This document shows positions 13,580-44,688 of a stretch of DNA of 64,000 nt, in pieces. The notes under the pieces were generated by a model, which worked only from the letters and a program-made list of their open reading frames with translations, ran no database searches and was not told the DNA's origin. Numbering within the stretch: position 1 is the stretch's first letter; each line of letters opens with the position of its first letter. The translations under genes were made by a program, and so were the position numbers. Source of the DNA: Gemmatimonadota bacterium (lineage in GTDB: Bacteria; JBHIER01; G020348925); the NCBI GenBank assembly GCA_020348925.1, contig CP070758.1, forward strand, positions 1-64,000, written 5' to 3'.

Positions 13580-14098
13580 TCAGTTGGATGTTTTTTCTCC
13601 TCTCTCCAGACGTGATATGGGAATTATCTTGAAGTCTTCAAAGGAAACGCTACCGGGGAAATGGAACTTAAATTTCGCATTCATAATACCAGCAACTTCC
13701 ATTCCTTCAATTACTTTACAGTCGGTTGATTCGACCGAATCACGTACAGTTTCGGTCGCAGACTGGCAACCCAAAACTATCACAGCTTCATGTTGTTTTG
13801 CATATTTCTGCAGCTTTTTACGTCGTCCTGAAGTCCACACGCAAAGGAACCAATGATGATATAGTCTGCTCTTAAAAACTTTTGTATTCACTCCCCTTTC
13901 TCTTAATCGAAATTGAAGCGTTTTGATGTATTGTTCGAGAGGAACTGATTTCAGGAAACTCCTGAAAAATTGAATGAAAGGTTTTTCTTCTCTCGCGGCA
14001 ACAGTCGCTGCAGGACACATAATACATGGAACGATCAAGGCCGAATTCAATCCTGAAACTTCAGAAAGCACATCCAAGTCTTTAAAATGAATTGGCAT
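13580..14098 (-). CDS. Hypothetical protein with CxxC...C...C, possibly metal/Fe-S binding
   Basis: RBS gaagggag; LIVPCIMC, FLC, AVIVLGC motifs. Confidence 0.6.
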   Translation of the reverse strand: MPIHFKDLDVLSEVSGLNSALIVPCIMCPAATVAAREEKPFIQFFRSFLKSVPLEQYIKTLQFRLRERGVNTKVFKSRLYHHWFLCVWTSGRRKKLQKYAKQHEAVIVLGCQSATETVRDSVESTDCKVIEGMEVAGIMNAKFKFHFPGSVSFEDFKIIPISRLERGEKTSN

Positions 14099-14214: not shown

Positions 14215-14502
14215 TTAACTCAAGATGTCCTTCTTCATCTGTTCAAATTCCTCTTTTGTGATCTCTCCTTTCGCATATCTCTTTTTCAGTATATCTAACG
14301 CTGATTCCGTTTCTCCATCTTCTCTGTGGTGTTCTGTCGAGCTCCACCACGGTGGTTTACAGTCTTCAGGGCCCCACCAGGGTGACCTGCGGCTCCCTCG
14401 TCCGAAAAATACGAAACAGAAAATGATCATTACTACAAACATAATCATAGGGATAATCCACATTCCACCCCAATGCCACATCCATGGTTGTTCTGGAGTC
14501 AT
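14215..14502 (-). CDS. SHOCT-domain membrane protein
   Basis: Start at 14502 (RBS ggaga); TM helix; C-terminal ALDILKKRYAKGEITKEEFEQMK. Confidence 0.85.
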   Translation of the reverse strand: MTPEQPWMWHWGGMWIIPMIMFVVMIIFCFVFFGRGSRRSPWWGPEDCKPPWWSSTEHHREDGETESALDILKKRYAKGEITKEEFEQMKKDILS

Positions 14503-14750
14503 TGTTGTTTTCTCCGTATCGATTAAAACATCGTGAAACAGTGCTGTACTACTCGCGACTAAGAGGCTTGGAAACCTGAAGTTTTCATCTACCAAGTTGC
14601 CTCAACATGTTGAAATTATTGATGACATCAGGTGGCTATAACCACATCCGATTCAAAGCGCTGGTTAGATAACAATGATAAAGCCATGTATAATATGTCA
14701 AATGTAATAGCAATTATGAGACATTATTTGCGCCGTGGAGAAAAAGTGTA

Positions 14751-14782
14751 AACATAAAGATGCCTCCGGCATCCATATCGTT
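14751..14782 (-). promoter_or_regulatory. Putative bacterial SECIS for the C-terminal Sec
   Basis: GAUGCC-GGA-GGCAUC hairpin, loop 19 nt after UGA, with an imperfect lower stem; lies mostly in the 3' UTR. Confidence 0.65.
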
Positions 14783-15188
14783 AACCTCATCCATACCAAG
14801 CTTTTTCATCCATTTCCACTTGTAAACCTGCTAATAACTTATTGAATCCACTGAATAAATCAACGACTGCCATCAATTCGAGAACGCCTTCGTCATCCAA
14901 TCCTAATTTCCGCACCGCGGAAGTGTGGACCGTAATTCAGTACTCACATCCCATTACTGCTGATACGGCCACTGCAATGATTTCCTTTGTCAGTCTGTCA
15001 AGCTTTCCTCCTTTATGCATGATGGTCATCGTTTTGTTCCAGGTTGCCTCAAGATAGTCTGGATTATGAGCCATCACTTTGTACATATTAGGAACAAAAT
15101 CGATTCCAAGCGTATGCCTGATCTCCTTGAAAATATCTTTAATCTTGCCCGTTGCCTCCTCTTCATTGATCATTTCAATTGATGCCAT
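14781..15188 (-). CDS. AhpD/carboxymuconolactone decarboxylase (CMD) family selenoprotein with two predicted Sec (135 aa)
   Basis: KEIIAVAVSAVMGCEY-TGA(14937-39)-ITVHTSAVRKLGLDDEGVLELMAVVDLFSGFNKLLAGLQVEMDEKAWYG-TGA(14787-89)-G-TAA. The frame continues as a normal CMD helix pair past the first TGA. Confidence 0.85.
14900..14930 (-). promoter_or_regulatory. Putative bacterial SECIS for the CEYU Sec
   Basis: UUCCGC-GGU-GCGGAA hairpin, loop 20 nt after UGA, lower stem GUCC/GGAU. Confidence 0.75.
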
Positions 15189-15271
15189 ATTTTCTCTCCT
15201 CCACTATGCTAGTATTCATTAGATTTCTGTCAATCGTATCATAAGACTTTTGCATTTGCATAAATTCAATC

Positions 15272-16525
15272 TCAAGTTTTGATTTGTTCATCCAGATCAG
15301 TTGGCAGGATAACCGTGAACGTACTACCTTTACCAATCTCACTTTCTACTTTTATTTCTCCTCTATGCTTCTGAATAATGTTGTAACTTGTGAATAATCC
15401 GATTCCAGCCTTCACCCGTGATCCCTTTTTTGAGAAACTTGGATCGAATAATTTCTGAATTCGTCCGGGTGAAATACCAATTCCTGTGTCAGCAATTTGC
15501 ACACATACCTTACTATTTTCATGAACCGTACGGATTGTGATTGTACCCTTTTTCTCGATTGCCTGAACCGCATTCATCAACAGGTTCATAAATACTTGGT
15601 TTATCTCTCCGGAATGACAGGCTATCTCTGGAATATCTCCATACTCTTTTGCAATATTTATATGATCTTTGAGTTCGTGTTCAAGCAAGGTCAATATGCT
15701 TTCCAGACTATTATGTACATCGGTTTTCTGAAACGATGTTTCATCCAACCTGGAGAAACTTTTCAAGCTATTAATAATTGTTGTTATGCGTTCAGTTGCA
15801 GCTGTGGTTGCAGGGCTTGCTGCTTTAAGAGCCTGCAGTGAATTTTGAAGTTGTTTGTTGTTTTTAACTTCATTATGAAATTGTCCTTTATTCATTATTT
15901 CTAAGATATTATTAACAGAGCGATTGGATATATCCGTTACACTATTGATGGTTCCGATAGGGGTGTTTATCTCGTGAACAACACCGGCAACCAATTTTCC
16001 AAGGGCTGCCATTTTTTCCGACTGCACCAGTTTTGCCTGAGTCAGCTGCAATTCTTCGAGTAGTTGTTGCAGTCTATTTTTCTCTTCCTTCAATTTGGCA
16101 ATTTTATCCACATGATTGGCCGCTTCTCCTTTGATGAGAAGCGCGCTGTCTAAAACAGATTTTATTTCATCTTCTGCAATGCCTACAGACCGAGATGCAG
16201 CAATATGTTTAACTAGATTTGAGGTACAATTAACCGCAAAGGCAGCAGCAACGGAAACCAATTCACTGATGCGCGTCGTGCTCTCCGTCTGTACCTCTCG
16301 TGTAATACCGGTTTTTCCTCCTAAATGCTTAAGGCCATGGTCTTCCATTATTGCCTCGGCATTCTTACGCACTGATAGGGCATCCGAAATTGCTTGTTTT
16401 ATTTCGTCTTCTGAAGCACCTGCTTCACGCACTTTTTCAAAGTGATGATCTATTCAGGGCTTACAACCAGCGGCAACGGATGTTCCAATATTAACCAATT
16501 CTTTTTCTTTGGAAGTCAGTGGCAT
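15272..16525 (-). CDS. Cytoplasmic sensor histidine kinase with N-terminal tandem CMD/AhpD-like domains and predicted Sec (417 aa)
   Basis: RBS aaggag then ATG 16525: MPLTSKEKELVNIGTSVAAGCKP-TGA(16454-56)-IDHHFEKVREAGASEDEI. Second CMD repeat ELVSVAAAFAVNC; HisKA QSEKMAALG...HEINTP; HATPase N/G1/G2 boxes; no TM helix. Confidence 0.8.
16412..16448 (-). promoter_or_regulatory. Candidate SECIS hairpins for the kinase Sec
   Basis: UCAU-CACUUU-GAA-AAAGUG-c-GUGA (loop 15 nt after UGA), or alternatively UGAAGC-AGGU-GCUUCA (loop 32 nt after UGA). Confidence 0.45.
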
Positions 16526-16754
16526 AACTCACTCCTTGTATCAAAAATAATATGAGTTGTTCGCATAAAGTTATAAATTCATACTGTTTTTTACAAAAGA
16601 TTTTTCACTATTCTTCTTATTTACTTTGATTTCTGAATTGCTGGGGAAATCTATTAATATTGTTCGATATCTGGCACTGAATACTATCTTTGATATTACA
16701 CATTTTGAGGATTATTACTGATGCCGCAGAGAAATTATTTTCTGCATGGATGTC

Positions 16755-17417
16755 TTATTCTGTTAGTCTTCCCTCTACTAATTGCAGTTTTCTTTGAGCA
16801 TCATCCGCTACACCTGGATTATGAGTTACCATAACCACGGTAATCCCTTCCTTGTTCAACGACTTTAGGTAGCTCACTGTTTCAACGGTTGTAGAGGGGT
16901 CTAAATTGCCTGTAGGCTCATCCGCCATAATTATCCGTGGATTATTGGCCAGGGCCCTCGCAATGGATACCCTTTGCTGTTGCCCGATGCTTAGTTCGTA
17001 AGGTTTATGGCCAAGCCTGTCCCCCAGGCCCAACTTTGCCAGCAGTTCTAACGCTCTTTCTTTTTGCCCGCCATCTGAGATTCCGTCTAAGGACAGGGGA
17101 ATCTGAACATTCTCCAGGGCGGTCAAATAGGGAATTAAATTGAAGGTCTGAAAAACGAATCCAAGATTTTTCAATCGAAAACTTGCTCGTTTCTTGACAT
17201 TCATATCATAGATAGAGATCCCATCTATGGTTACACTTCCCCCGGAAGGGTGTATCAATCCACCCAGGCACAAGAGCAATGTTGTCTTCCCGGAACCTGA
17301 TGGTCCCACTATTGAAACGAATTCTCCTTCCTTAATGGACAATGAAACGTCATTTAAAGCAGTTACAGAATTCGCCTTACCGTTAAAAATCTTTGAGAGC
17401 TTCTCAGTCTGTATCAT
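16755..17417 (-). CDS. ABC transporter ATP-binding protein (LolD/MacB-like)
   Basis: GPSGSGKT, GFVFQTFNL, LSIGQQQR, ADEPTGNLD, VTH. Confidence 0.95.
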   Translation of the reverse strand: MIQTEKLSKIFNGKANSVTALNDVSLSIKEGEFVSIVGPSGSGKTTLLLCLGGLIHPSGGSVTIDGISIYDMNVKKRASFRLKNLGFVFQTFNLIPYLTALENVQIPLSLDGISDGGQKERALELLAKLGLGDRLGHKPYELSIGQQQRVSIARALANNPRIIMADEPTGNLDPSTTVETVSYLKSLNKEGITVVMVTHNPGVADDAQRKLQLVEGRLTE

Positions 17418-18644
17418 TTATGTCTCCTGTAATATTAAAGCGGGGTCCATCTTGGCTGCTTTTCTGGCTGGCAGATACGATGCAAGTATGCTGATTCCAA
17501 CAGCCAAAAGCATCGACCATATGAAAAGTATTGGAATGGGCAACACTTTGACGCCTGCTATCTGAGGTCCCAGAATCATACCGGCCAAACTGCCAAAGAC
17601 GTAACCGGCAACCCCACCGATCAACCCCAGGATCAAGGCCTTTCCAATAAATATGTAATAGATGTCCCCGGGAGATGCACCTATGGCCAACAGAGAACCG
17701 ATCTCTTTTTTTCGCTCCTCCACATTCGACCACATATAGTTGCCTATGGATATCCCGCCTACCAGAATGATAATGATCAGGAAAATGATGGAGAATTTCG
17801 CCATGGTTTCATTGGTCTCCACCTGAGTCTGCACGATATGATTGATCGTAGTGATTTTCGTATCAGGCAGAATGTTTCTCAGGTTTCCCAAGAGACCTTC
17901 GGTGATAGCTGAACAACAGCCCATAATTTCTATGGCATTGATCACTTTTTCCTTTCCAAGGATCTTTTGGGCGGTATGAAGATGAACAAAGATGCGACCA
18001 TCATCCACAGTTCCGGTCTGAGGGAGTATCTCTGCTACCTTGAGTTTGGTCCCTCTGATTTGAATCCCAGAGTCTTTATCCACGTCCAATTGTGACGCCA
18101 CATCGCTTCCTATCAGACAGTCGTTGACACCCAGTGAATCAATGGATTTCCTCTGAAGTCTTGGATCTTCAAAGCCATGACTTCGATTCACAATGTTGTT
18201 CGGATCGCAGGCAGCCATTAAACCGGGGTCGGAAAAACCGACCGTTTGCCAGATGGGCTTTGAGGCCAGCTCATTCTTTGGAAGGATCCCGGTCAACACT
18301 AAGGAATAATCCTCAACAAAAATGCGCGCAGACAATTTGGGAGACATATTGTCCACTCCCTGAATCGTGGAACTGGCTATCCGCTCGACATATTCTTCGG
18401 GCATCTCCGGGGCGTTGATGTCAGCCGCGTAGTAGTTATCTATGGTTGTGGTTTGTGGTAAAACCAGGATATTGGCCCCCAGATTGTCCAGTTGAATGGC
18501 TACCGCCTTCTCCGAGGAATTGGACACCGATTTGACAGCAACGATAACAATGATCCCCAACAGAATGGCGATGAAACTGGTGATAAATTGCTTTTTCCTC
18601 TCCAGAAGTTCTTTCAGAATGATTTTTCCCAGATTCATTTTCAT
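17418..18644 (-). CDS. ABC permease, MacB/FtsX family
   Basis: TM + LGAN periplasmic domain; ERKKEIGSLLAIGA; PARKAAKMDP; contains GCCSA. Confidence 0.9.
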   Translation of the reverse strand: MKMNLGKIILKELLERKKQFITSFIAILLGIIVIVAVKSVSNSSEKAVAIQLDNLGANILVLPQTTTIDNYYAADINAPEMPEEYVERIASSTIQGVDNMSPKLSARIFVEDYSLVLTGILPKNELASKPIWQTVGFSDPGLMAACDPNNIVNRSHGFEDPRLQRKSIDSLGVNDCLIGSDVASQLDVDKDSGIQIRGTKLKVAEILPQTGTVDDGRIFVHLHTAQKILGKEKVINAIEIMGCCSAITEGLLGNLRNILPDTKITTINHIVQTQVETNETMAKFSIIFLIIIILVGGISIGNYMWSNVEERKKEIGSLLAIGASPGDIYYIFIGKALILGLIGGVAGYVFGSLAGMILGPQIAGVKVLPIPILFIWSMLLAVGISILASYLPARKAAKMDPALILQET

Positions 18645-18650
18645 TCTCCC

Positions 18651-19541
18651 CTAAGGCGTGCTTTTTTGTGCCTGGTTCGTGTTTGATTTCGTGGGTCCAC
18701 AGGTTTTCCCACTGCCTGGAGGACAAAATCCACTGCGCGTGACTCTGGTTGCAGCGGCCACCAGATCATCGACCTGTACTCCCCCCTCATACTTTCCAGT
18801 CACTTGCCCTTGAGGATTTAACACATAGGTGATCGGTTCAGCAGCGAGAGGATTGATCTTCAGATCTTTGATGAATCCGGCCTCTTCAGGATCGTTCATG
18901 TCAACGCTAATATATTCGGCTTTCCCTGCAAGTTTGCTTTCGGCTTGAGAGCAACAACCCCGAATCTCTTTGCAAGATGGCATATCACCATCACAAAAGC
19001 ACAGGATGACACCTTTCTTTTGCTGGATATACTTCAGAGCTTCTTCTTTCTTGGGTGACGGAAAAGCCTGTTCGATTTCCTCTACTGTGGCTACCTTTGT
19101 TAATGCTGATACTATTAAACCACTGGGCGCAGTGAGAAGCGTTAATGGAACCGAAGCGCTCTGAGTCCGCATTGATCTTACAATATCTCTATTCATCGGA
19201 TCTTTTCTGTCGATTTTGATGATCTCAATATCTTTCTTTGTCTTTTGCGCAAACGCATCCAGGTTTGTTGTCATGATCTCACAATCCGCATTTCCGGTTT
19301 CATAGAACAGCACGTAGGCATACTTGCCAGTTGAATGCGCTCGCGTCAGCTTCTGTGAGGCTTCGGAAGGCTGTCGTTGTTCCGGAATCTGTCTGGAAGA
19401 TTGCACAGGCTGTGAAACCGTTTCTTTTGCCTGCACACTGCTTACTTCCTGGTCCTTGCAGCCACTGCCGAAAATGATCATCCCGAAAGCCACAACGCCG
19501 AAGATGCCGAAAGCCCATCTGCTCTTAACTACACGAAACAT
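18651..19541 (-). CDS. Putative lipoprotein with two thioredoxin-like folds and a Cys-containing tail
   Basis: Lipobox-like FGSGC; YVLFYETGNADC and ILCFCDGDMPSC segments; tail SGFCPPGSGKTCG. Confidence 0.6.
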   Translation of the reverse strand: MFRVVKSRWAFGIFGVVAFGMIIFGSGCKDQEVSSVQAKETVSQPVQSSRQIPEQRQPSEASQKLTRAHSTGKYAYVLFYETGNADCEIMTTNLDAFAQKTKKDIEIIKIDRKDPMNRDIVRSMRTQSASVPLTLLTAPSGLIVSALTKVATVEEIEQAFPSPKKEEALKYIQQKKGVILCFCDGDMPSCKEIRGCCSQAESKLAGKAEYISVDMNDPEEAGFIKDLKINPLAAEPITYVLNPQGQVTGKYEGGVQVDDLVAAATRVTRSGFCPPGSGKTCGPTKSNTNQAQKSTP

Positions 19542-19619
19542 TTTATGCTCCTTTCTATTGCATTAATACCCATACAGTGTTGAGCTGTTCATGATATTTA
19601 TTCAAATCACGAAACACGA

Positions 19620-20027
19620 TCATACTTTGTTGTAACTTATACCGGAACACTCTACTTTTTGTCTGTTCGCAAAACCAACCACGCATGTATCACCATCTCT
19701 CAGCTTCATTCTCTGCCTCAGTCTCTCTGCATCCAAAAGAAATACAGAATCAGACAGTTGCTCCTTCAACAACTGAAAAAGTTGATTATTGAAGGAGGAG
19801 CTTTCTTTCAAAGGCGAATAATAGACCCAGGTGCCTCTTCTTTCACCTTCTACCAAGTTTGCGTTTTTCAGAATATTCAGGTGCTTTGACACCTGATACT
19901 GAGGTAATTCCAGAGCATCCACAAATTCGCATACACAAATCTGGCGATCGGTAATTGTCAATAACCTCATAATTCTCAATCTTGTCTCGTCAGACAATGC
20001 CTTGAAGATCTCTGTATAATTGTTCAT
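19620..20027 (-). CDS. ArsR/SmtB family transcriptional repressor
   Basis: FKALSDETRLRI, ICVCEF, VSKHL, RRGTWVYY; start moved to ATG 20027. Confidence 0.9.
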   Translation of the reverse strand: MNNYTEIFKALSDETRLRIMRLLTITDRQICVCEFVDALELPQYQVSKHLNILKNANLVEGERRGTWVYYSPLKESSSFNNQLFQLLKEQLSDSVFLLDAERLRQRMKLRDGDTCVVGFANRQKVECSGISYNKV

Positions 20028-20050
20028 AATACCCTTAACTCCTATATGCC

Positions 20051-20099
20051 TGTATGCCGAAATGGGCATATAATATATTCCATAATTATCTCCTGTCAA
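20051..20099 (-). promoter_or_regulatory. Sigma70 promoter overlapped by a probable ArsR operator
   Basis: TTGACA (20094-99)-N18-TATTAT (20070-75); palindrome TATGCC-N6-GGCATA immediately downstream of the -10 box. Confidence 0.6.
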
Positions 20100-20247
20100 G
20101 TTATTTTTACCTTCAGAATATTTCACCATTAAAAGAATAGAATAACCCAGGCAAACATCTTTTTTGCATACGAATCAAAGCATACCTATCTGTAACTCCA
20201 ATTGCGTTGAATGTACTCGATGGAGCTATTTATAGGTGGATCTTGAT

Positions 20248-20583: not shown

Positions 20584-23502
20584 ATGATCGGTAAAACCGT
20601 ATCTCATTACAAAATCCTCGAAAAGCTCGGTGAAGGCGGCATGGGTCTCGTCTACAAAGCCGAGGATACAAAGCTCAAGCGGACCGTTGCTCTCAAGTTC
20701 CTATCACCTGAATTATCACGGGACTCAGAAGCAAAGAGTCGTTTCATCAAAGAGGCACAAGCTGTCTCTTCCCTTCAGCACAATAACATCTGCAACATTC
20801 ATGAGATTGATGAAACTGAAGATAGGCAAATGTTCATATGTATGGACTATTATGATGGGGAATCCTTACAAGAGAAGATAGAACGAGGACCACTCAAAAT
20901 AGATGAAACGATTGATATTGGCTTACAAATAGCCGATGGTCTCTGTGAGGCCCATGAAAAAAACATTATTCATCGTGATATTAAACCTGCTAATATCATG
21001 ATAACACGCAAGGGCCAATCAAAAATCATGGATTTTGGCCTGGCCAGGTTGCGAGATCGAACGAAACTGACCAAGGAGGGAACAGCATTAGGAACTGTGG
21101 CATACATGTCGCCAGAACAGGCGCGGGGTGAAGAAGTCGATCACCGTTCAGATATATGGTCACTGGGAGTAGTAATCTATGAAATGATCACTGGTCAGCC
21201 TCCCTTCAAAGGTGAATATGAGCAAGCGATGATATTTTCCATTTTAAACGAGGAAGCTGAACCGATGACGGGGCTACGAACAGGTGTGCCGATGGAACTG
21301 GAGAGGATTGTGAATAAGGCTCTGGCAAAAAGCCCAGATGTACGGTACCAGCACGCAGATGAATTGTTGGCAGATTTGAGACGTGAGCGAAAACAATTGG
21401 AAGACGTGCAGAAGGGTCAACTCCCCTCTGAAAACGTTACAAAACAAAGGAAGAAATTTTCACCTTTATTGCTTCCTGCTGCTATTGTCTTCATTCTCGC
21501 TCTAGTCTTCCTCATATTCAAACCCTTTCAGATTGAGATAGGTCCTCAAAAAGAGCTTACGGCCGAGGAGAACCGTCTGGCGATCATGTATTTTGACAAT
21601 CTAACTGATTCTGAGGATAGCGAGAAGCTGGGTGAAATTGCAACGAACTTGTTAATAACCGACCTGACCGAGTCACAATATCTAAACGTCGTTTCGAGCC
21701 AGCGATTATATGATGTTCTCAAACTTCTGGGGAGAGAGGGTGAGAAGAGACTCGACAGGGATGTGGCCACGGAGGTGGCAACCAAGGCCAGAAGCCGATG
21801 GATGCTATTGGGGAAAATCCTTCAGGTTGAACCCCATATCATTATTACTTCCCACTTGGTTGATATAGAGACTGGTAATGCGATTGCTTCCCAGCGAATC
21901 ACAGGAGAGGTGGGTGAGAACATTTTTACCCTGGTCGATAAGCTGACAGTGGAAATCAAGAATGATCTTTCCTTACCTACAGCGGCACAAGAAGAGGCTG
22001 ATCGACCGATTGCCGATGTTACAACACATTCTCCAGAGGCATATCGTTACTATCTCGAAGGAATAGAATACGAGTCCAAGCTTTATTGGGATGAGGCTGA
22101 GAGAAGCTTTCGAAAAGCATTGGAGTACGATTCCACCTTGGCAATGGCATATTACCAGTTGATAGGATATACAACGGACTTGGAAAAGAAAAAAATGTTG
22201 GCGAAAGCGATTGAATATTCAGGCAATGCTACTCAGAAGGAAAAATTATGGATAAAAAGTAGTGAGGCTGCTCTCGAAGGAAATTTGCCCCAGTATGTCA
22301 GCATATTGGAGAGGATAGCAGAGCGCTATCCCGATGAGAAAGAGGCATTTTACCGTCTGGGAGACTATTATAAAGATTTTGAAGAGTATGAAGAAACCAG
22401 TCATTATTACAACAAAGCTATTGAGATCGATCCTTCTTATAAACTGATATATAATGAACTTGCCTATATCTATGATAGAATCGGTGACGCAGATAAATCT
22501 ATATGGGCCATAAACAAATACATAAGTCTGGCACCGGGTGAAGCGAATCCGTACGATACTCGGGGTGACCTTTATGCAAACAAAGGGAAATTGAGACAGG
22601 CGATTGAATCCTATAAGAAAGCCCTGGAAATAAAACCTGATTTCCTCGTCTCACTACCTAAACTAGGTCATATGTATCTTTTAAATTTGGAATATGCAAA
22701 AGCTGAAAGCTGTTACCAGAAAATGTGCACCAGTGTAGATAAATATACCCGATCACAGGGAAGACTATATATGTCTTATGTTCCTCTTTATCAAGGAAAG
22801 TTTGAAGAGACTTTAGGTGTATTAAATGACGGTATCGCAGCGGACAGAATGGAGCATGCTCAAGGAGGATTGTATAATATTGGAAAATACGGGATTAGGG
22901 TACTAATCTACAGGGAGAAAAAAGAGCCCGGTTTCGCCTTAAAGGAATGGAAAAAAGCATTTGATCCAGAAGATATAAGCGAGATTCGATCCATCTACGT
23001 GTTGCTTTTGGCAGAGAATAATGATCTTGAGGGGGCAGAGGACGAAGTTTTGGCCTATAAAAAAGAAATTGAGGAGAAAGCTCCCACCGAGATGTTTTAT
23101 TATTACTGGGCCATGGGATATCTTGAGTCGGTGAGAGGCAATTTCGAATCAGCGGTAACCAATTTTGAAAATGCGGCCAGAGACTACCCACATTATCCAG
23201 ATATTATTTTGTGCTTTTCGCTCGCTAAAGCATACTTGCTGGTGGGAAGATGGGGTGAATCAGTAGCTGAGTTTGAGAAGATTCTATCAAAATATGCTGC
23301 TCAAAGGCTATTTTATTCAATTATAGCTGTAAAGACCTATTACTTCTTGGGCTTAGCGTATGAAAGATCGGGTTGGACACAGAAGGCGATTGAGCAATAT
23401 GAGACTTTTCTCGATATCTGGAAAAATGCCGATCCTGGAATAGAGGAAGTTGAGGATGCAAAGGCGAGACTGGCAGCATTGAAGGGAGTTTCATCCAAAT
23501 GA
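20584..23502 (+). CDS. Hanks-type Ser/Thr kinase with TM, TolB-like domain and TPR repeats
   Basis: LGEGGMG, VALK, HRDIKPAN, DFG, YMSPE; TM LLLPAAIVFILALVFLIF; LAIMYFDN; multiple TPRs. Confidence 0.95.
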   Translation: MIGKTVSHYKILEKLGEGGMGLVYKAEDTKLKRTVALKFLSPELSRDSEAKSRFIKEAQAVSSLQHNNICNIHEIDETEDRQMFICMDYYDGESLQEKIERGPLKIDETIDIGLQIADGLCEAHEKNIIHRDIKPANIMITRKGQSKIMDFGLARLRDRTKLTKEGTALGTVAYMSPEQARGEEVDHRSDIWSLGVVIYEMITGQPPFKGEYEQAMIFSILNEEAEPMTGLRTGVPMELERIVNKALAKSPDVRYQHADELLADLRRERKQLEDVQKGQLPSENVTKQRKKFSPLLLPAAIVFILALVFLIFKPFQIEIGPQKELTAEENRLAIMYFDNLTDSEDSEKLGEIATNLLITDLTESQYLNVVSSQRLYDVLKLLGREGEKRLDRDVATEVATKARSRWMLLGKILQVEPHIIITSHLVDIETGNAIASQRITGEVGENIFTLVDKLTVEIKNDLSLPTAAQEEADRPIADVTTHSPEAYRYYLEGIEYESKLYWDEAERSFRKALEYDSTLAMAYYQLIGYTTDLEKKKMLAKAIEYSGNATQKEKLWIKSSEAALEGNLPQYVSILERIAERYPDEKEAFYRLGDYYKDFEEYEETSHYYNKAIEIDPSYKLIYNELAYIYDRIGDADKSIWAINKYISLAPGEANPYDTRGDLYANKGKLRQAIESYKKALEIKPDFLVSLPKLGHMYLLNLEYAKAESCYQKMCTSVDKYTRSQGRLYMSYVPLYQGKFEETLGVLNDGIAADRMEHAQGGLYNIGKYGIRVLIYREKKEPGFALKEWKKAFDPEDISEIRSIYVLLLAENNDLEGAEDEVLAYKKEIEEKAPTEMFYYYWAMGYLESVRGNFESAVTNFENAARDYPHYPDIILCFSLAKAYLLVGRWGESVAEFEKILSKYAAQRLFYSIIAVKTYYFLGLAYERSGWTQKAIEQYETFLDIWKNADPGIEEVEDAKARLAALKGVSSK

Positions 23503-40319: not shown

Positions 40320-41591
40320 ATGTTGGATCAAAAGTTCATTCGCGAAAACAGTGACAGCGTCAAGAGGGCGATCGCTGACAAGGGTGAAACTGCAAATGTC
40401 GACGCCTTCTTAGAACTGGACAAAGAACGCAGAGGGCTCTTGATCGAGGCCGACGAGTTGCGACACGCGCGCAATGTCACTTCCGAAGAGATCGGCCGCC
40501 TGAAGAGTCAGAAGGAGGACGCCTCCGAAAAGATTAAAGTCATGCAGGAGGTGGCTCAGCAGATTAAAGATCTCGAGCAGAAGATAAGAGAGGTCGAAAC
40601 GAACATAGAGACAATTCTCTTGACCGTGCCCAACATGCCCCATTCATCGGTTCCCGTCGGAACGAGTGAGGCGAACAATGTTGAGATACGTCGCTGGGGC
40701 GAGAAAAGGGACTTAGGGTTTGAACCGCTGCCTCATTGGGAGATCGGTGAGCGTCTGGAGATCCTTGATTTCGGCAGCGCTTCACGGATGTCCGGCTCCG
40801 GGTTCGTCATATTACAGGGTCTCGGAGCGAAGCTGGAACGGGCTCTGATCAATTTTATGCTCGATCTTCATGTTCGGAAACACGGGTACACAGAATTGTC
40901 ACCACCGTTTCTCGTGAACCGCAGATCAATGGTAAATACCGGTCAGCTTCCCAAGTTGGAAGAGGATATGTATGAGTGCGAACAGGACGGTTTCTTTCTC
41001 ATTCCGACAGGAGAGGTCCCGGTGACCAATGTGCATCAGGATGACATTTTGAAGGAAAAAGAGCTTCCGAAATATTATGCGACGTATACCCCCTGCTTCC
41101 GTCGCGAAGCCGGCTCATATGGTAAAGAGACCCGGGGACTTATTCGGGTTCATCAATTCGATAAGGTCGAAATGGTGAAATTCGTCCGCCCCGAAACATC
41201 GTACGACGAGCTGGAAAGTCTCCTGAAGGATGCCGAAGAGGTGCTCCAGCTCCTGGACCTCCATTACCGTGTTGTCTCCCTGTGTACGGCTGATTTGAGT
41301 TTTGCCGCCGCAAAATGTTACGACATCGAGGTCTGGGCTCCGGGTGTCGGGAAATATCTGGAAGTCTCATCATGCTCAAATTTCGAAGCGTTTCAAGCCA
41401 GAAGGGCATCCATACGGTTCCGCCGAGAGGATACAGGTAAAGTGGAATTCGTTCACACGCTCAACGGATCGGGGCTCGCCTTACCGCGCACTGTGATCGC
41501 CCTGCTTGAAAATTATCAGACTGAAAAGGGAACCGTAGTCGTCCCTGAGGTGTTAAGGAAATATATGGACGATGCGGAAATACTCTGTTAA
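40320..41591 (+). CDS. serS: Seryl-tRNA synthetase
   Basis: [40 protein letters not shown]. Confidence 0.98.
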
Positions 41592-41641: not shown

Positions 41642-42880
41642 ATGGAGTTCCTCGCACACAGAAGCAGGTTTCGTTTTTCAGGTCGCATCCACGAGCTGTC
41701 AGCCTTTTTCAAAGGTTTTCTCTTTATTGCGGCTATTCTCCTTATCTTAGCTTTCCTCATTTACAATCAGTACGTGGTTCACAGATTGAGGAATGACGAG
41801 CGGAGACTCCTCCACGTTTACGCCAATCTGTATGCTGCGGCGACGTCGGAACTTTCCGACGGAGCTGAGTTGAACCTTATTTTCGACGAGGTCATTCGCC
41901 CCACCGATTTTCCCATAATTGCCACGACGGCTGACGGTACACCTTACGCCTGGAAGGGAATTGGGATTGATACGGACGACTCAAAGGAAAAAGCGCTGTC
42001 CAAGGCCCGGCGGATGTTAGCTAAAATGGATTCAAAAACTGAACCCATCCCTCTCTCAGTGCAGGAAACAGGCCAGGTCGTGGGCTATCTTCACTATGGT
42101 GATTCCGGTTTAGTGCGGCAACTGAGTTGGATGCCGTACATTCAAATCGTAGTTGTCGGTCTGTTCATATTCATCGGCTTCCTTGGGTACAGGAACATCA
42201 AAAAAAGCGAGCAACGGTTCATCTGGGTGGGTATGGCCAAGGAGACGGCGCATCAATTGGGTACGCCACTTTCATCCCTTATGGGTTGGCTCGAACTCAT
42301 GAGAGTGGAGGGGAGAAAGGAAGGGCGAGACAAGATACTTCAGGAGATCGAAAACGATCTCAAGCGTCTGAGCAAAATTGTGTCCCGTTTCAGTCAAATA
42401 GGTTCGGAACCTAAATTGGAGAAACAGCCCATTATCCCCATTCTCACTGAGACAGCGGGCTATTTCCGGCAGCGACTGCCACAATTGAGCAAGCGCATCG
42501 AGATCGAGGAGCACTACAAGGAGATCCCTCCCCTTTCGGTGAACAGAGAACTGTTGGGGTGGGTGTTTGAAAATCTGTTTAAAAATTCCATCGATTCCAT
42601 CGGGAAAGATGGTGGGCGCATTGAAATCACAACCGATCTCAACCACGATAAAGAGGATGTCATTATTACATTTACAGATACCGGCCGGGGTATTGATTCA
42701 AAGGTCCAGCGCAGAATCTTCGCCGCGGGTTACAGCACAAAGAAGCGCGGCTGGGGCCTGGGACTGACGTTGGCCAAACGGATCATTGAAGAGTATCACG
42801 GTGGTCGCATCCTTCTGAAGGAGAGCACACCGGAGCAAGGGACGATTTTTCATCTGACGTTACCCATAGGAAGCGAATGA
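41642..42880 (+). CDS. Membrane sensor histidine kinase
   Basis: Two TMs; MAKETAHQLGTP H-box; DTGRG and GWGLGL boxes. Confidence 0.92.
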   Translation: MEFLAHRSRFRFSGRIHELSAFFKGFLFIAAILLILAFLIYNQYVVHRLRNDERRLLHVYANLYAAATSELSDGAELNLIFDEVIRPTDFPIIATTADGTPYAWKGIGIDTDDSKEKALSKARRMLAKMDSKTEPIPLSVQETGQVVGYLHYGDSGLVRQLSWMPYIQIVVVGLFIFIGFLGYRNIKKSEQRFIWVGMAKETAHQLGTPLSSLMGWLELMRVEGRKEGRDKILQEIENDLKRLSKIVSRFSQIGSEPKLEKQPIIPILTETAGYFRQRLPQLSKRIEIEEHYKEIPPLSVNRELLGWVFENLFKNSIDSIGKDGGRIEITTDLNHDKEDVIITFTDTGRGIDSKVQRRIFAAGYSTKKRGWGLGLTLAKRIIEEYHGGRILLKESTPEQGTIFHLTLPIGSE

Positions 42881-43131
42881 GAGATCTCGTCGCACGAGGA
42901 GAGAGGGAGGGGGCTTTTGAAATTTCATTGTCTCATATCTCTGGAGCCTCCTCATTCCTTGCTGCCTCGAACCGGTTTTTCCGCCTTCGTACCGCTTTCG
43001 ATTTACCTTGACAGCACATCAATTATCAGGTATTTTTACAGCCGTTAGGGGTCCGGACAGAAGGGGAGGATGTACATATTTTTCCAGTCAAAAGAATCGC
43101 CCGGGTTTCTACCGGGCGTGTGACTTTAAAA

Positions 43132-44688
43132 ATGGCAGAACAGAAGAAAATTTTGTGGGTCGATGATGAGATTGACATGCTCCGATCCCACATTCGTTTC
43201 TTGGAGGAGCGTGGATATGCGGTTTCCGGCACAAGCAGCGGTCTTGATGCCGTGGAGCTGGTTGCGAAAGAACCTTTCGATCTTGTCTTATTGGATGAGA
43301 TGATGCCGGGGAAAGATGGCTTGACCGTACTTGCTGAAATAAAAGACCTGAGCCCTTCGTTGCCTGTGATTATGATTACCAAGAGCGAAGAGGAACGACT
43401 TATGGACGAAGCGATCGGAAAAAGAATTGACGACTATCTGACCAAGCCTGTGAATCCAAGTCAGATACTTTCGGCCTGTAAGAAGATCCTGGAAAAGCGG
43501 AGGATTCAACGGGGACAGATCACTCAGGACTACGTCATTGACTCGAACCAGATCAGAGGTCTCATCGCAGGTCCGACCTCATGGCCAGATTGGATCGAAA
43601 TCCAGAACAAATTGGTGAAATGGGACATCGAGCTGGATCAGAGCGCAGACACAGGCTTGAAGCAAAGCCATCAAGATCAAAGACGTGAATGCAATACTGA
43701 ATTTGTGAAATTTGTGGAACGGAACTACCACCGTTGGCTTGAAGAAGAGGATCGACCACCGCTGTCCGTCGATGTCATCCGGCGATTCATTCTTCCTGAA
43801 ATCAGATCTGGCAGGAACGTCATATTCATCGTCATGGATTCCATGCGCCTGGATCAATGGGCTGCCGTCGAATCACTTCTCTACGATTACTTTACCGTCC
43901 AGCGGGACTACTATTACGCCGTTTTACCCACGGCGACGCCTTTTGCCCGGAATGCTATCTTCGCCGGCCTCTTCCCCGATGAGGTCGCCCGAAGATATCC
44001 CGAACTGTGGCGAAAAGGCGGTGATGATGAGGGAAGCCTGAACCGATATGAACATGATTTGCTCAACGACCAGCTTAACACACTCGGTCTCAAACTTCAT
44101 CCGGACCCGAAGTATATTAAAATATTGGATGTGACCGAAGCGAGAGAGCTTACAAAACAAATCGTCACATACAGGGATACACCGCTGACGGCGATCGTTT
44201 TTAATTTCGTCGATATACTTTCACACGGCCGATCTGAATCCGAAATCCTTCAGGAGATAGCACCTGACGAATCGGCGCTGCGATCCCTTATTCGATCATG
44301 GTTCATTCACTCTGAACTGTTTACTATTTTAAAGACTGCCTCACAATGGGATTGTACGGTCGTTCTCACCTCCGATCACGGCTCTGTCCTGAGTACGAAA
44401 GGAACAACCGTCTATGGAGATCGGGAAACCTCAACCAATTTGCGTTACAAATACGGGCAGAATCTTCGATGCGATGATAAGCATGCCCTCCATATTAAGA
44501 AACCGGAGGAGTACAGACTGCCGAGTATTGGATTACATTCCAACTTCATCATTGCCAAGGAGGACTACTTTTTTCTCTACCCCACGAAGTATCATAAATA
44601 TAAAAGGCAGTTTCAAGGGAGTTTCCAGCACGGCGGTATCTCCCTGGAAGAGATGATTCTGCCGGTAGCCATCATGAGATCGAAGTGA
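43132..44688 (+). CDS. porX: PorX-like response regulator with PglZ/alkaline-phosphatase-like domain
   Basis: ILWVDDEID receiver; DSMRLDQW, LPTATPFARNAIF, TSDHG, QHGGISLEEM; adjacent to tsaE. Confidence 0.85.
   Translation: MAEQKKILWVDDEIDMLRSHIRFLEERGYAVSGTSSGLDAVELVAKEPFDLVLLDEMMPGKDGLTVLAEIKDLSPSLPVIMITKSEEERLMDEAIGKRIDDYLTKPVNPSQILSACKKILEKRRIQRGQITQDYVIDSNQIRGLIAGPTSWPDWIEIQNKLVKWDIELDQSADTGLKQSHQDQRRECNTEFVKFVERNYHRWLEEEDRPPLSVDVIRRFILPEIRSGRNVIFIVMDSMRLDQWAAVESLLYDYFTVQRDYYYAVLPTATPFARNAIFAGLFPDEVARRYPELWRKGGDDEGSLNRYEHDLLNDQLNTLGLKLHPDPKYIKILDVTEARELTKQIVTYRDTPLTAIVFNFVDILSHGRSESEILQEIAPDESALRSLIRSWFIHSELFTILKTASQWDCTVVLTSDHGSVLSTKGTTVYGDRETSTNLRYKYGQNLRCDDKHALHIKKPEEYRLPSIGLHSNFIIAKEDYFFLYPTKYHKYKRQFQGSFQHGGISLEEMILPVAIMRSK

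Follow-up and report, generated by a model that had tools for sequence, protein, structure and literature searches.

The 64,000-nucleotide stretch analyzed here, positions 1 to 64,000 of contig CP070758.1 from a Gemmatimonadota bacterium (assembly GCA_020348925.1) and hereafter called the window, carries on its minus strand (15272..16525) a gene that we read as coding for a selenocysteine (Sec)-containing sensor kinase. The full reading is that of a 417-residue cytoplasmic histidine kinase in which the UGA at codon 24 is decoded as Sec, and we give it a probability of roughly 0.8. The kinase is a real feature and very probably a genuine selenoprotein, and we hold Sec insertion at codon 24 itself to be highly likely. 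What looks to be new is the apparent use of an AhpD-like selenoprotein domain with a CxxU motif as the sensor of a two-component kinase.

Reading frame and start of the kinase gene

When TGA is read as U, the minus-strand frame between 16525 and 15272 comprises 417 uninterrupted codons and ends at a TGA stop at 15274-15272. The sole internal stop is the TGA of codon 24 at 16456-16454, and translated in this single frame, with TGA as U, the N-terminus reads MPLTSKEKELVNIGTSVAAGCKP-U-IDHHFEKVREAGASEDEI, where U24 takes the second position within C21-K-P-U24. A Shine-Dalgarno sequence, AAGGAG (16532..16537, minus strand), can be read directly 6 nt ahead of the ATG at 16525-16523. The automatic open reading frame (ORF) call covers only 15272..16432, from a GTG start, for a product of 386 residues, and the public protein collection carries the kinase of the source genome solely as this shorter call (P0003); the protein is cut short by gene callers because the putative Sec is encoded by a recoded stop codon. 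A preliminary description of this DNA had reported the ORF start at 16432, the ribosome binding site AAGGAG with an ATG at 16525, the in-frame TGA between an N-terminal peptide and the kinase, and a CMD/AhpD motif whose second Cys is encoded by TGA. As a description of the sequence it is correct in every detail, and the motif fits E9-x11-C21-x-x-U24-x3-H28 exactly when searched as a regular expression.

If the UGA were a true stop, the working kinase would be the 386-residue protein that starts at GTG 16432, and codons 1-23 would be a leftover or a short leader ORF. This is the product that ORF callers give, both for the window (P0003) and in eight similar shortened calls among homologues. The start signals argue otherwise, as AAGGAG precedes the ATG at 16525 whereas direct reading of the sequence finds no Shine-Dalgarno upstream of GTG 16432. 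A product starting at Val32 would also lose the first helix and most of the second in the six-helix domain that is predicted for the N-terminus (see below), and the TGA falls exactly on the CxxC column of the family. The codon usage on either side of the TGA bears on this alternative as well and is taken up after the homologues.

Cys and TGA at codon 24 among homologues

A search with residues 1-140 against 5.8 billion proteins yielded 89 proteins of the CMD-CMD-kinase architecture. Cys stands at the position aligned with codon 24 in 80 of these (G-C-x-P-C), while eight others are ORF calls that begin at V/M-x-EAGAS, immediately past the position, and the last is the window's own shortened call. 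Six full-length homologues were found in species-representative genomes, two of them with TGA at codon 24, namely L034 (the metagenome-assembled genome (MAG) of an uncultured bacterium) and L038 (a Calditrichia MAG), and four with TGT or TGC there, from Krumholzibacteriia (L033), Latescibacterota (L035), Aminicenantes (L036), and Eiseniibacteriota (L037). A degenerate pattern demanding TGA at codon 24 was applied to 112 loci and matched just the three TGA forms already known there, and the same pattern matched two more loci, L113 and L114, in a metagenome collection. TGA is therefore present at the same codon in five loci from different assemblies (the window, L034, L038, L113, and L114). A whole-protein search of the genomes of 40 relatives returned transmitter-domain matches only and no full-length homologue. 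Because the column is Cys in 80 of 89 family proteins and TGA in four other loci, the comparison indicates that the TGA at codon 24 is more than chance. The preliminary description had pointed to kinase-fused homologues with an aligned Cys or TGA as the thing to look for; both kinds exist, and the TGA is not private to this genome.

In a 93-row tree of the family, the eight shortened ORF calls (P0083-P0087 and P0089-P0091) group with the TGA forms that were verified at the DNA level, and a clade with 99% support comprises L114, L034, and P0083-P0086. The Sec and shortened rows are all confined to one half of the tree. Four changes of the Cys label are needed on it, of which well-supported branches force one, and a single origin and several origins are not separable. 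By this count, about 13 of the 93 family members in the sample would be Sec forms, five of them verified in DNA.

A quite different explanation would put the TGA down to faulty sequencing or assembly, or to a nonsense mutation that is private to a gene in decay. One homologue does look degraded, namely the kinase copy at 2603-3214 of L066 (a KSB1 MAG), in which roughly 40 codons are missing from the start, the Sec codon and the conserved codon block described below among them, and which ends near residue 215; either the gene is decaying here or the copy is misassembled. In the kinase gene of the window, the remaining frame is intact with all kinase boxes present, and the same-codon TGA recurs in the five loci of different assemblies. 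The preliminary description had also called for the TGA to be confirmed in sequencing data. Assembled Logan contigs from two runs, X1 and X2, which may both come from the source study, cover 16454-16456 as well as 14937-14939, the TGA of a neighboring gene discussed below, and both TGAs are unchanged in them (contigs of runs X3 and X5 cover other parts of the stretch). The X2 contig differs from the window at 14 of 925 positions (about 98.5% identity) and thus represents another strain, so that the TGA is kept in a variant strain too. We regard an error or a private mutation as extremely improbable.

A conserved codon block and a candidate SECIS downstream of the UGA

Recoding of UGA in bacteria would call for a selenocysteine insertion sequence (SECIS) in the frame, and the codons that follow the UGA show the corresponding constraint. 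Across the five TGA forms, all ten of the codons with invariant amino acids between codons 25 and 40 are also nucleotide-identical, compared to 0/12 such codons in the upstream flank (codons 1-23) and 1/11 in the downstream flank (codons 41-70), or 1/23 for the flanks combined (Fisher p = 1.2e-7, block versus flanks). In the four Cys forms, only 1/8 of the amino acid-invariant codons of the same block are identical. Within the block, codons 28-38 are nucleotide-identical in the TGA forms except at the codon in the middle of a 3-nt loop, and their mean pairwise nucleotide identity is 0.945, versus 0.71 and 0.63 in the flanks of the same genes and 0.66 in the Cys forms. A suppression of synonymous change that is limited to about 35 nt past the UGA, and to the genes that have the UGA, is what would be expected of an in-frame SECIS.

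These findings also speak to the possibility of a true stop at codon 24. Among the five TGA forms, 12 residues of codons 1-23 are invariant with no codon fixed for any of them, which is the signature of selection at the protein level; conserved as protein and not as DNA, codons 1-23 are therefore likely to be translated. The block of fixed codons, for its part, occurs in TGA forms only. The lack of significance of the hairpin energies, detailed below, is in keeping with a true stop, but taken with the start signals and the CxxC column we consider this alternative improbable.

The candidate SECIS lies at 16412..16444 on the minus strand, spans +13 to +45 relative to the UGA, and was identified by folding together with its nucleotide invariance in 5/5 Sec forms, save for the loop at codon 30. 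It consists of two 6-bp hairpins, the first (16444-16430) with the variable 3-nt loop and the second (16427-16412) with an invariant 4-nt loop, AGGU. Hairpins after the TGA had been noticed in the preliminary description, and they are present in this form, with energies no better than those of shuffled sequences.

Several observations weigh against the full reading of this gene. The stability of the kinase hairpins is unremarkable: they form the minimum free energy (MFE) structure, with z = -0.76, and 46 of 200 shuffled sequences fold equally well. RNAalifold found covariation at 0/12 of the hairpin pairs, because all 12 predicted pairs are invariant, and the support for the element thus comes from sequence conservation and not from pairing. 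An Rfam scan of 14700-16700 with E values up to 10 gave no SECIS family and five weak chance matches. Counted from the U of the UGA, the invariant 4-nt loop occupies +36 to +39, while the corresponding loop in the neighboring gene is nearer, at +24 to +26. The EAGAS peptide itself partly favors hairpin 2, and one Cys form (L036) can make a similar stem. Runs X1 and X2 share one study, possibly the source of the assembly, and are thus not independent of it, and the eight shortened ORF calls are known at the protein level only. In addition, the gene neighborhoods of distant homologues are not conserved, and no response regulator is adjacent to the kinase. Finally, the insertion of selenium itself is inferred.

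Selenocysteine machinery in the source genome

The window is part of a genome that consists of a single 5.04-Mb contig and is 96.3% complete. This genome encodes selA (598.8 bits), selB (396.5 bits), and selD (L009, 372 bits), as well as a tRNA-Sec (65.8 bits) with the anticodon TCA as determined by ARAGORN, and all four are above the curated cut-offs. The selD gene itself has one in-frame TGA, at its active-site position. The preliminary description had suggested looking for selA, selB, selC, as well as selD, and since all of them are present in the same genome, the Sec machinery is not lacking. Among the nine CMD-domain matches in the genome, four have one in-frame TGA, with C-x-x-U in each one that was read. 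At least five genes of the organism are candidates for Sec. Another pair of CMD genes has an in-frame TGA at CxxU, one at C1:545863-546066 (L115, GCYG-U-IEYH) and the other at C1:4158000-4158206 (L116, GCYP-U-MEHY).

Domain architecture and predicted fold

The kinase contains Pfam matches to CMD (67.8 bits over two stretches, cut-off 23), to HisKA (28.7 bits, cut-off 26.9), and to HATPase_c (76.9 bits, cut-off 26.4). On the head, the ahpD_dom model (TIGR00778) scores 47.5 bits against a cut-off of 27.8, and the best NCBIfam model is NF041047 (GSU3128 family (seleno)protein) with 65.6 bits, which does not reach the equivalog cut-off of 110 bits and marks the head as a relative and non-member of that family. 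The first AhpD/CMD repeat comprises residues 1-67 (16325..16525, minus strand, as for all features of this gene), with the Pfam CMD match at residues 3-52 and predicted helices at 5-19, 22-34, and 39-67. Its motif residues E9, C21, C/U24, and H28 are each at least 90% conserved over 85 aligned family members. The second repeat, residues 85-137 (16115..16273; CMD match 16094-16267), has the motif E88-x11-C100-x6-H107 by regular expression and has lost the second Cys, while N99 and C100 are invariant in the alignment of 85 members.

Downstream of the repeats, residues 138-175 (16001..16114) are predicted to form a signaling helix or coiled coil that is part of an unbroken helix from 118 to 213. 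The HisKA domain, which corresponds to the dimerization and histidine phosphotransfer (DHp) domain, covers residues 175-262 (15740..16003), and its putative phospho-acceptor H184 is encoded at 15976-15974 within VHEINTP. HATPase_c follows at residues 308-409 (15299..15604) with N, G1, F, and G2 boxes. Both transmitter domains are supported by Pfam, by motif searches, and by the invariance of H184, E185, P189, N318, D346, G348, G350, F360, and G376 in the family alignment. The highest mean Kyte-Doolittle hydropathy over 19 residues is 1.24, and no membrane helix is therefore expected.

AlphaFold2 (AF2) modeling of residues 1-140 from a nine-sequence alignment gave six helices with a predicted local distance difference test (pLDDT) score of 88.1. 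The best Foldseek matches of this model were the Mycobacterium tuberculosis AhpD structures 1lw1, 1knc, and 1gu9 (TMq 0.75-0.80, probability 1.00), and the head is thus predicted to fold like AhpD. The full-length model (85 sequences, pLDDT 83.9) consists of soluble helices and a standard catalytic and ATP-binding (CA) domain; in it, the continuous helix 118-213 leads from repeat 2 through the coiled coil into the DHp with H184. The second CMD repeat, the coiled coil, the HisKA and HATPase domains, and the absence of a transmembrane helix had all been proposed in the preliminary description, and the Pfam matches, hydropathy, and models bear them out.

A proposed selenium-dependent redox switch

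In the mechanism that we propose, the in-frame SECIS of codons 28-38 would recruit SelB and tRNA-Sec, and the N-terminal 140 residues would then form a tandem AhpD-like six-helix domain, of which repeat 1 would have the full catalytic set with Sec as its second Cys. The selenolate of U24 would be oxidized by peroxide, or by an oxidized partner, for instance the AhpD-like selenoprotein encoded next to the kinase, or a peroxiredoxin. The position of U24 is the second of the CxxC motif, which we take to be the nucleophile in M. tuberculosis AhpD. C21 would resolve the oxidized U24 to give an intramolecular selenenylsulfide, upon which the helical bundle would rearrange and the continuous helix 118-213 would relay the change to H184, shifting the balance of autokinase and phosphatase activity toward an unlinked response regulator. 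As a by-product, full-length sensor would be made only when selenium is available, and when it is short, re-initiation at GTG 16432 may yield a kinase that lacks the head. The preliminary description had likewise suggested a head that senses redox state, peroxide, or metalloids and a tie between signaling and selenium supply, both of which may hold. We give the U24/C21 switch in this form about an even chance of being right.

The main functional rival would be that Sec is inserted but that the head is no redox switch, serving instead to bind a metalloid or soft metal (As, Se, Hg, or Cu) via C21, U24, and C100, or else acting as an enzyme whose turnover has only a loose link to the kinase. The invariance of C100 in repeat 2 is compatible with such binding. 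The head is also weakly similar to NF041537 (arsenite-methyltransferase selenoprotein AhpD domains, 47.1 bits) and to TIGR04169 (arsenosugar-associated peroxidase-like, 27.7 bits), although both of these NCBIfam scores are far below the cut-offs. Genes for an ArsR/SmtB metalloregulator and a thioredoxin-like protein are found upstream in the same orientation, but an ABC transporter and a gap of 230 nt come between this cluster and the kinase, and the cluster does not recur at homologous loci. Moreover, all four AhpD catalytic residues (E, C, C/U, and H) are kept at 90% or more in the 85 members. We therefore regard metalloid binding, or a loosely tied enzyme, as unlikely.

Going beyond the switch itself, the kinase could be the first selenium-dependent two-component sensor, a fast peroxide or redox switch that resists over-oxidation, that perhaps receives its signal by a Sec-to-Sec relay from the AhpD-like neighbor, and whose synthesis is tied to selenium; the head would then be an unnamed redox sensor domain with interconverting Sec and Cys versions, which evolution has coupled to kinases, nucleotide cyclases, and PP2C phosphatases. 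We offer this larger picture as a speculative possibility. Having Sec where a histidine kinase senses its signal would bring selenium biochemistry into signal transduction. Within a single family, about 13 Sec forms and 80 Cys forms also make up a natural Sec/Cys pair in which one could ask what Sec gives to a sensor, be it speed, a lower potential, or reversibility of over-oxidation.

The head as a reusable sensor module

A profile of the head was searched against 1.84 billion cluster representatives, which gave 1290 matches at E <= 1e-3, 325 at E <= 1e-10, and 52 at E <= 1e-30. Most among the 150 matches listed are stand-alone tandem-CMD proteins of 150-200 residues, and the motif E-x11-CxxCxxxH is kept in 122/148 of them, two known family members having been left out of this count. 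Elsewhere, the tandem-CMD head is fused to Guanylate_cyc (P0106 and P0211), SpoIIE/PP2C (P0158), and GNAT (P0157). A single small domain that recurs with kinase, cyclase, and phosphatase outputs is typical of sensor modules, and the tandem AhpD-like domain may thus be a modular sensor that is paired with several output domains. In this search, five stand-alone or fused representatives (P0101, P0145, P0161, P0196, and P0238) begin just past the CxxC/U position, and these too may be Sec forms that have gone uncalled. There is also a practical consequence for annotation, as the TGA forms in protein databases are systematically about 31 residues short and are missing the sensing motif.

Comparison with known systems

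AhpD is defined by the motif E-x11-C-x-x-C-x3-H. The M. tuberculosis AhpD structures 1knc, 1gu9, and 1lw1 have this motif in common with the kinase head, and the predicted fold is alike over about 138 residues. The two have 16-19% sequence identity, AhpD has Cys in place of Sec, and it is the reductase of AhpC, with no signaling output. Thiol-switch histidine kinases such as ArcB, RegB/PrrB, and SrrB have their Cys in a PAS domain, in a linker, or in the DHp, and are not known to have an AhpD-like head or Sec. They resemble the proposed kinase in principle, namely in the control of autophosphorylation by reversible oxidation of a chalcogen. SELENOO has a C-terminal Sec. It is a eukaryotic selenoprotein that combines Sec with a protein-kinase-like domain (PMC3281104). 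It is unrelated in fold and lineage and is no histidine kinase.

The nearest precedent that we found is a Sec-containing peroxiredoxin (Prx) fused to a PP2C-type phosphatase in the Global Ocean Sampling (GOS) metagenome, as described in the accessible part of PMC2398784. Here too, a redox selenoprotein domain is joined to a signaling output, and the tandem-CMD head likewise occurs with SpoIIE/PP2C (P0158). It differs in that the Prx has a thioredoxin fold and that the output is another one, with no two-component kinase.

According to the available portions of a 2026 review in Applied and Environmental Microbiology (PMC13188914), the CxxU selenoprotein families include AhpD-like, CMD-like, and "distant AhpD homolog" (GSU3128, NF041047) proteins, with TIGR01926 as the model for the known AhpD-like family. 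These families are like the kinase head in their CMD unit, in a CxxU with Sec as the second residue, and in an in-frame SECIS right past the UGA. They are small and stand-alone, whereas the kinase has two tandem units joined by one helix to HisKA/HATPase. In the accessible text of the reviews searched, known bacterial selenoprotein families are nearly all stand-alone redox enzymes. A search of the full-text literature, as far as the texts were accessible, found neither a Sec histidine kinase nor an AhpD/CMD-kinase fusion, and supplementary tables may hold one under the name "CMD-like" or "AhpD-like". The portions available of PMC13188914 and PMC13326102 do not mention two-component systems, sensors, or signal transduction, and refer to a kinase only as PSTK; the equivalent portions of PMC9312934 and PMC1976440 contain no signaling-related mention, and in those of PMC2702500 kinases and selenoproteins are each mentioned separately. 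The earlier statement that no Sec-containing two-component kinase had been characterized agrees with this literature, within the parts of it that were accessible.

The adjacent AhpD-like gene

A second gene with an in-frame TGA, overlooked in the preliminary description, lies 83 bases downstream of the kinase on the same strand (14787..15188). It has 133 codons and a stop, with the motif GCEY-U-ITVH and the UGA at codon 84 (14939-14937), and ORF callers end it at 83 residues. Its product scores 81.2 bits with TIGR01926, just under the cut-off of 81.8, and 50.5 bits with ahpD_dom (cut-off 27.8), and on its translation, profiles, and homologues it is a candidate CxxU selenoprotein of a known type. 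A putative SECIS hairpin follows the UGA (14895..14936, minus strand), in which a 6-bp apical stem with its loop GGU (together 14922-14908) stands above a lower stem. The apical stem is identical in 3/3 sequences, and compensatory changes occur in 2/19 pairs among these three. The hairpin is the MFE structure and folds no better than shuffled sequences (z = -1.30, 26/200).

In L034 and L066, homologues of this gene that are 76-80% identical adjoin the kinase gene; they have their TGA at the equivalent codon and share the apical hairpin, and in L066 the adjacent gene is intact despite the shortened kinase copy. When seven neighbors of the kinase in the window were compared with the nine homologous loci using tblastn, only the AhpD-like gene (in L034 and L066) and an ORF of 172 residues (in L034) recurred. 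Right after the stop of the AhpD-like gene there is a terminator-like hairpin (14758..14774, minus strand), a weak assignment based on its position, since three such sites were found versus 2.4 expected. It is possible that a transcription unit of the kinase and AhpD-like genes ends there. Counts from the scan for promoters and terminators were at chance level.

Other genes in the window

The ORF of 172 residues (13580-14098, minus strand) has a P-C-x-x-C-P-A motif and belongs to no Pfam or NCBIfam family. Its homologue in L034 (4396-4917) is 48% identical and directly downstream of the Sec kinase. This CxxC protein may belong to the system of the kinase. Between it and the AhpD-like gene is a protein of 95 residues (14215-14502, minus strand) whose N-terminus is hydrophobic and rich in Trp and whose C-terminus holds a SHOCT domain. 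Upstream of the kinase, the minus-strand genes at 16755-20129 encode an ABC ATPase, a MacB/FtsX permease, a protein of 296 residues with two thioredoxin-like halves, and the ArsR/SmtB regulator, and are possibly a thiol or metal stress cluster; none of these genes is conserved at the other loci.

The genome has 53 receiver-domain matches, one of which is in the window (43120-44688, plus strand, Response_reg+PglZ), directly behind a different HisKA/HATPase kinase at 41642-42880. As the sole receiver of the window is paired with another kinase, the Sec kinase is an orphan by position, just as the preliminary description had stated that no cognate response regulator is present on this segment. 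Just upstream of the 41642-42880 kinase is a gene for seryl-tRNA synthetase (40320-41591). A further kinase of another kind is encoded at 20584-23502 on the plus strand, a Ser/Thr protein kinase of 972 residues that also contains an extended TPR region as well as a FlgO-like segment.

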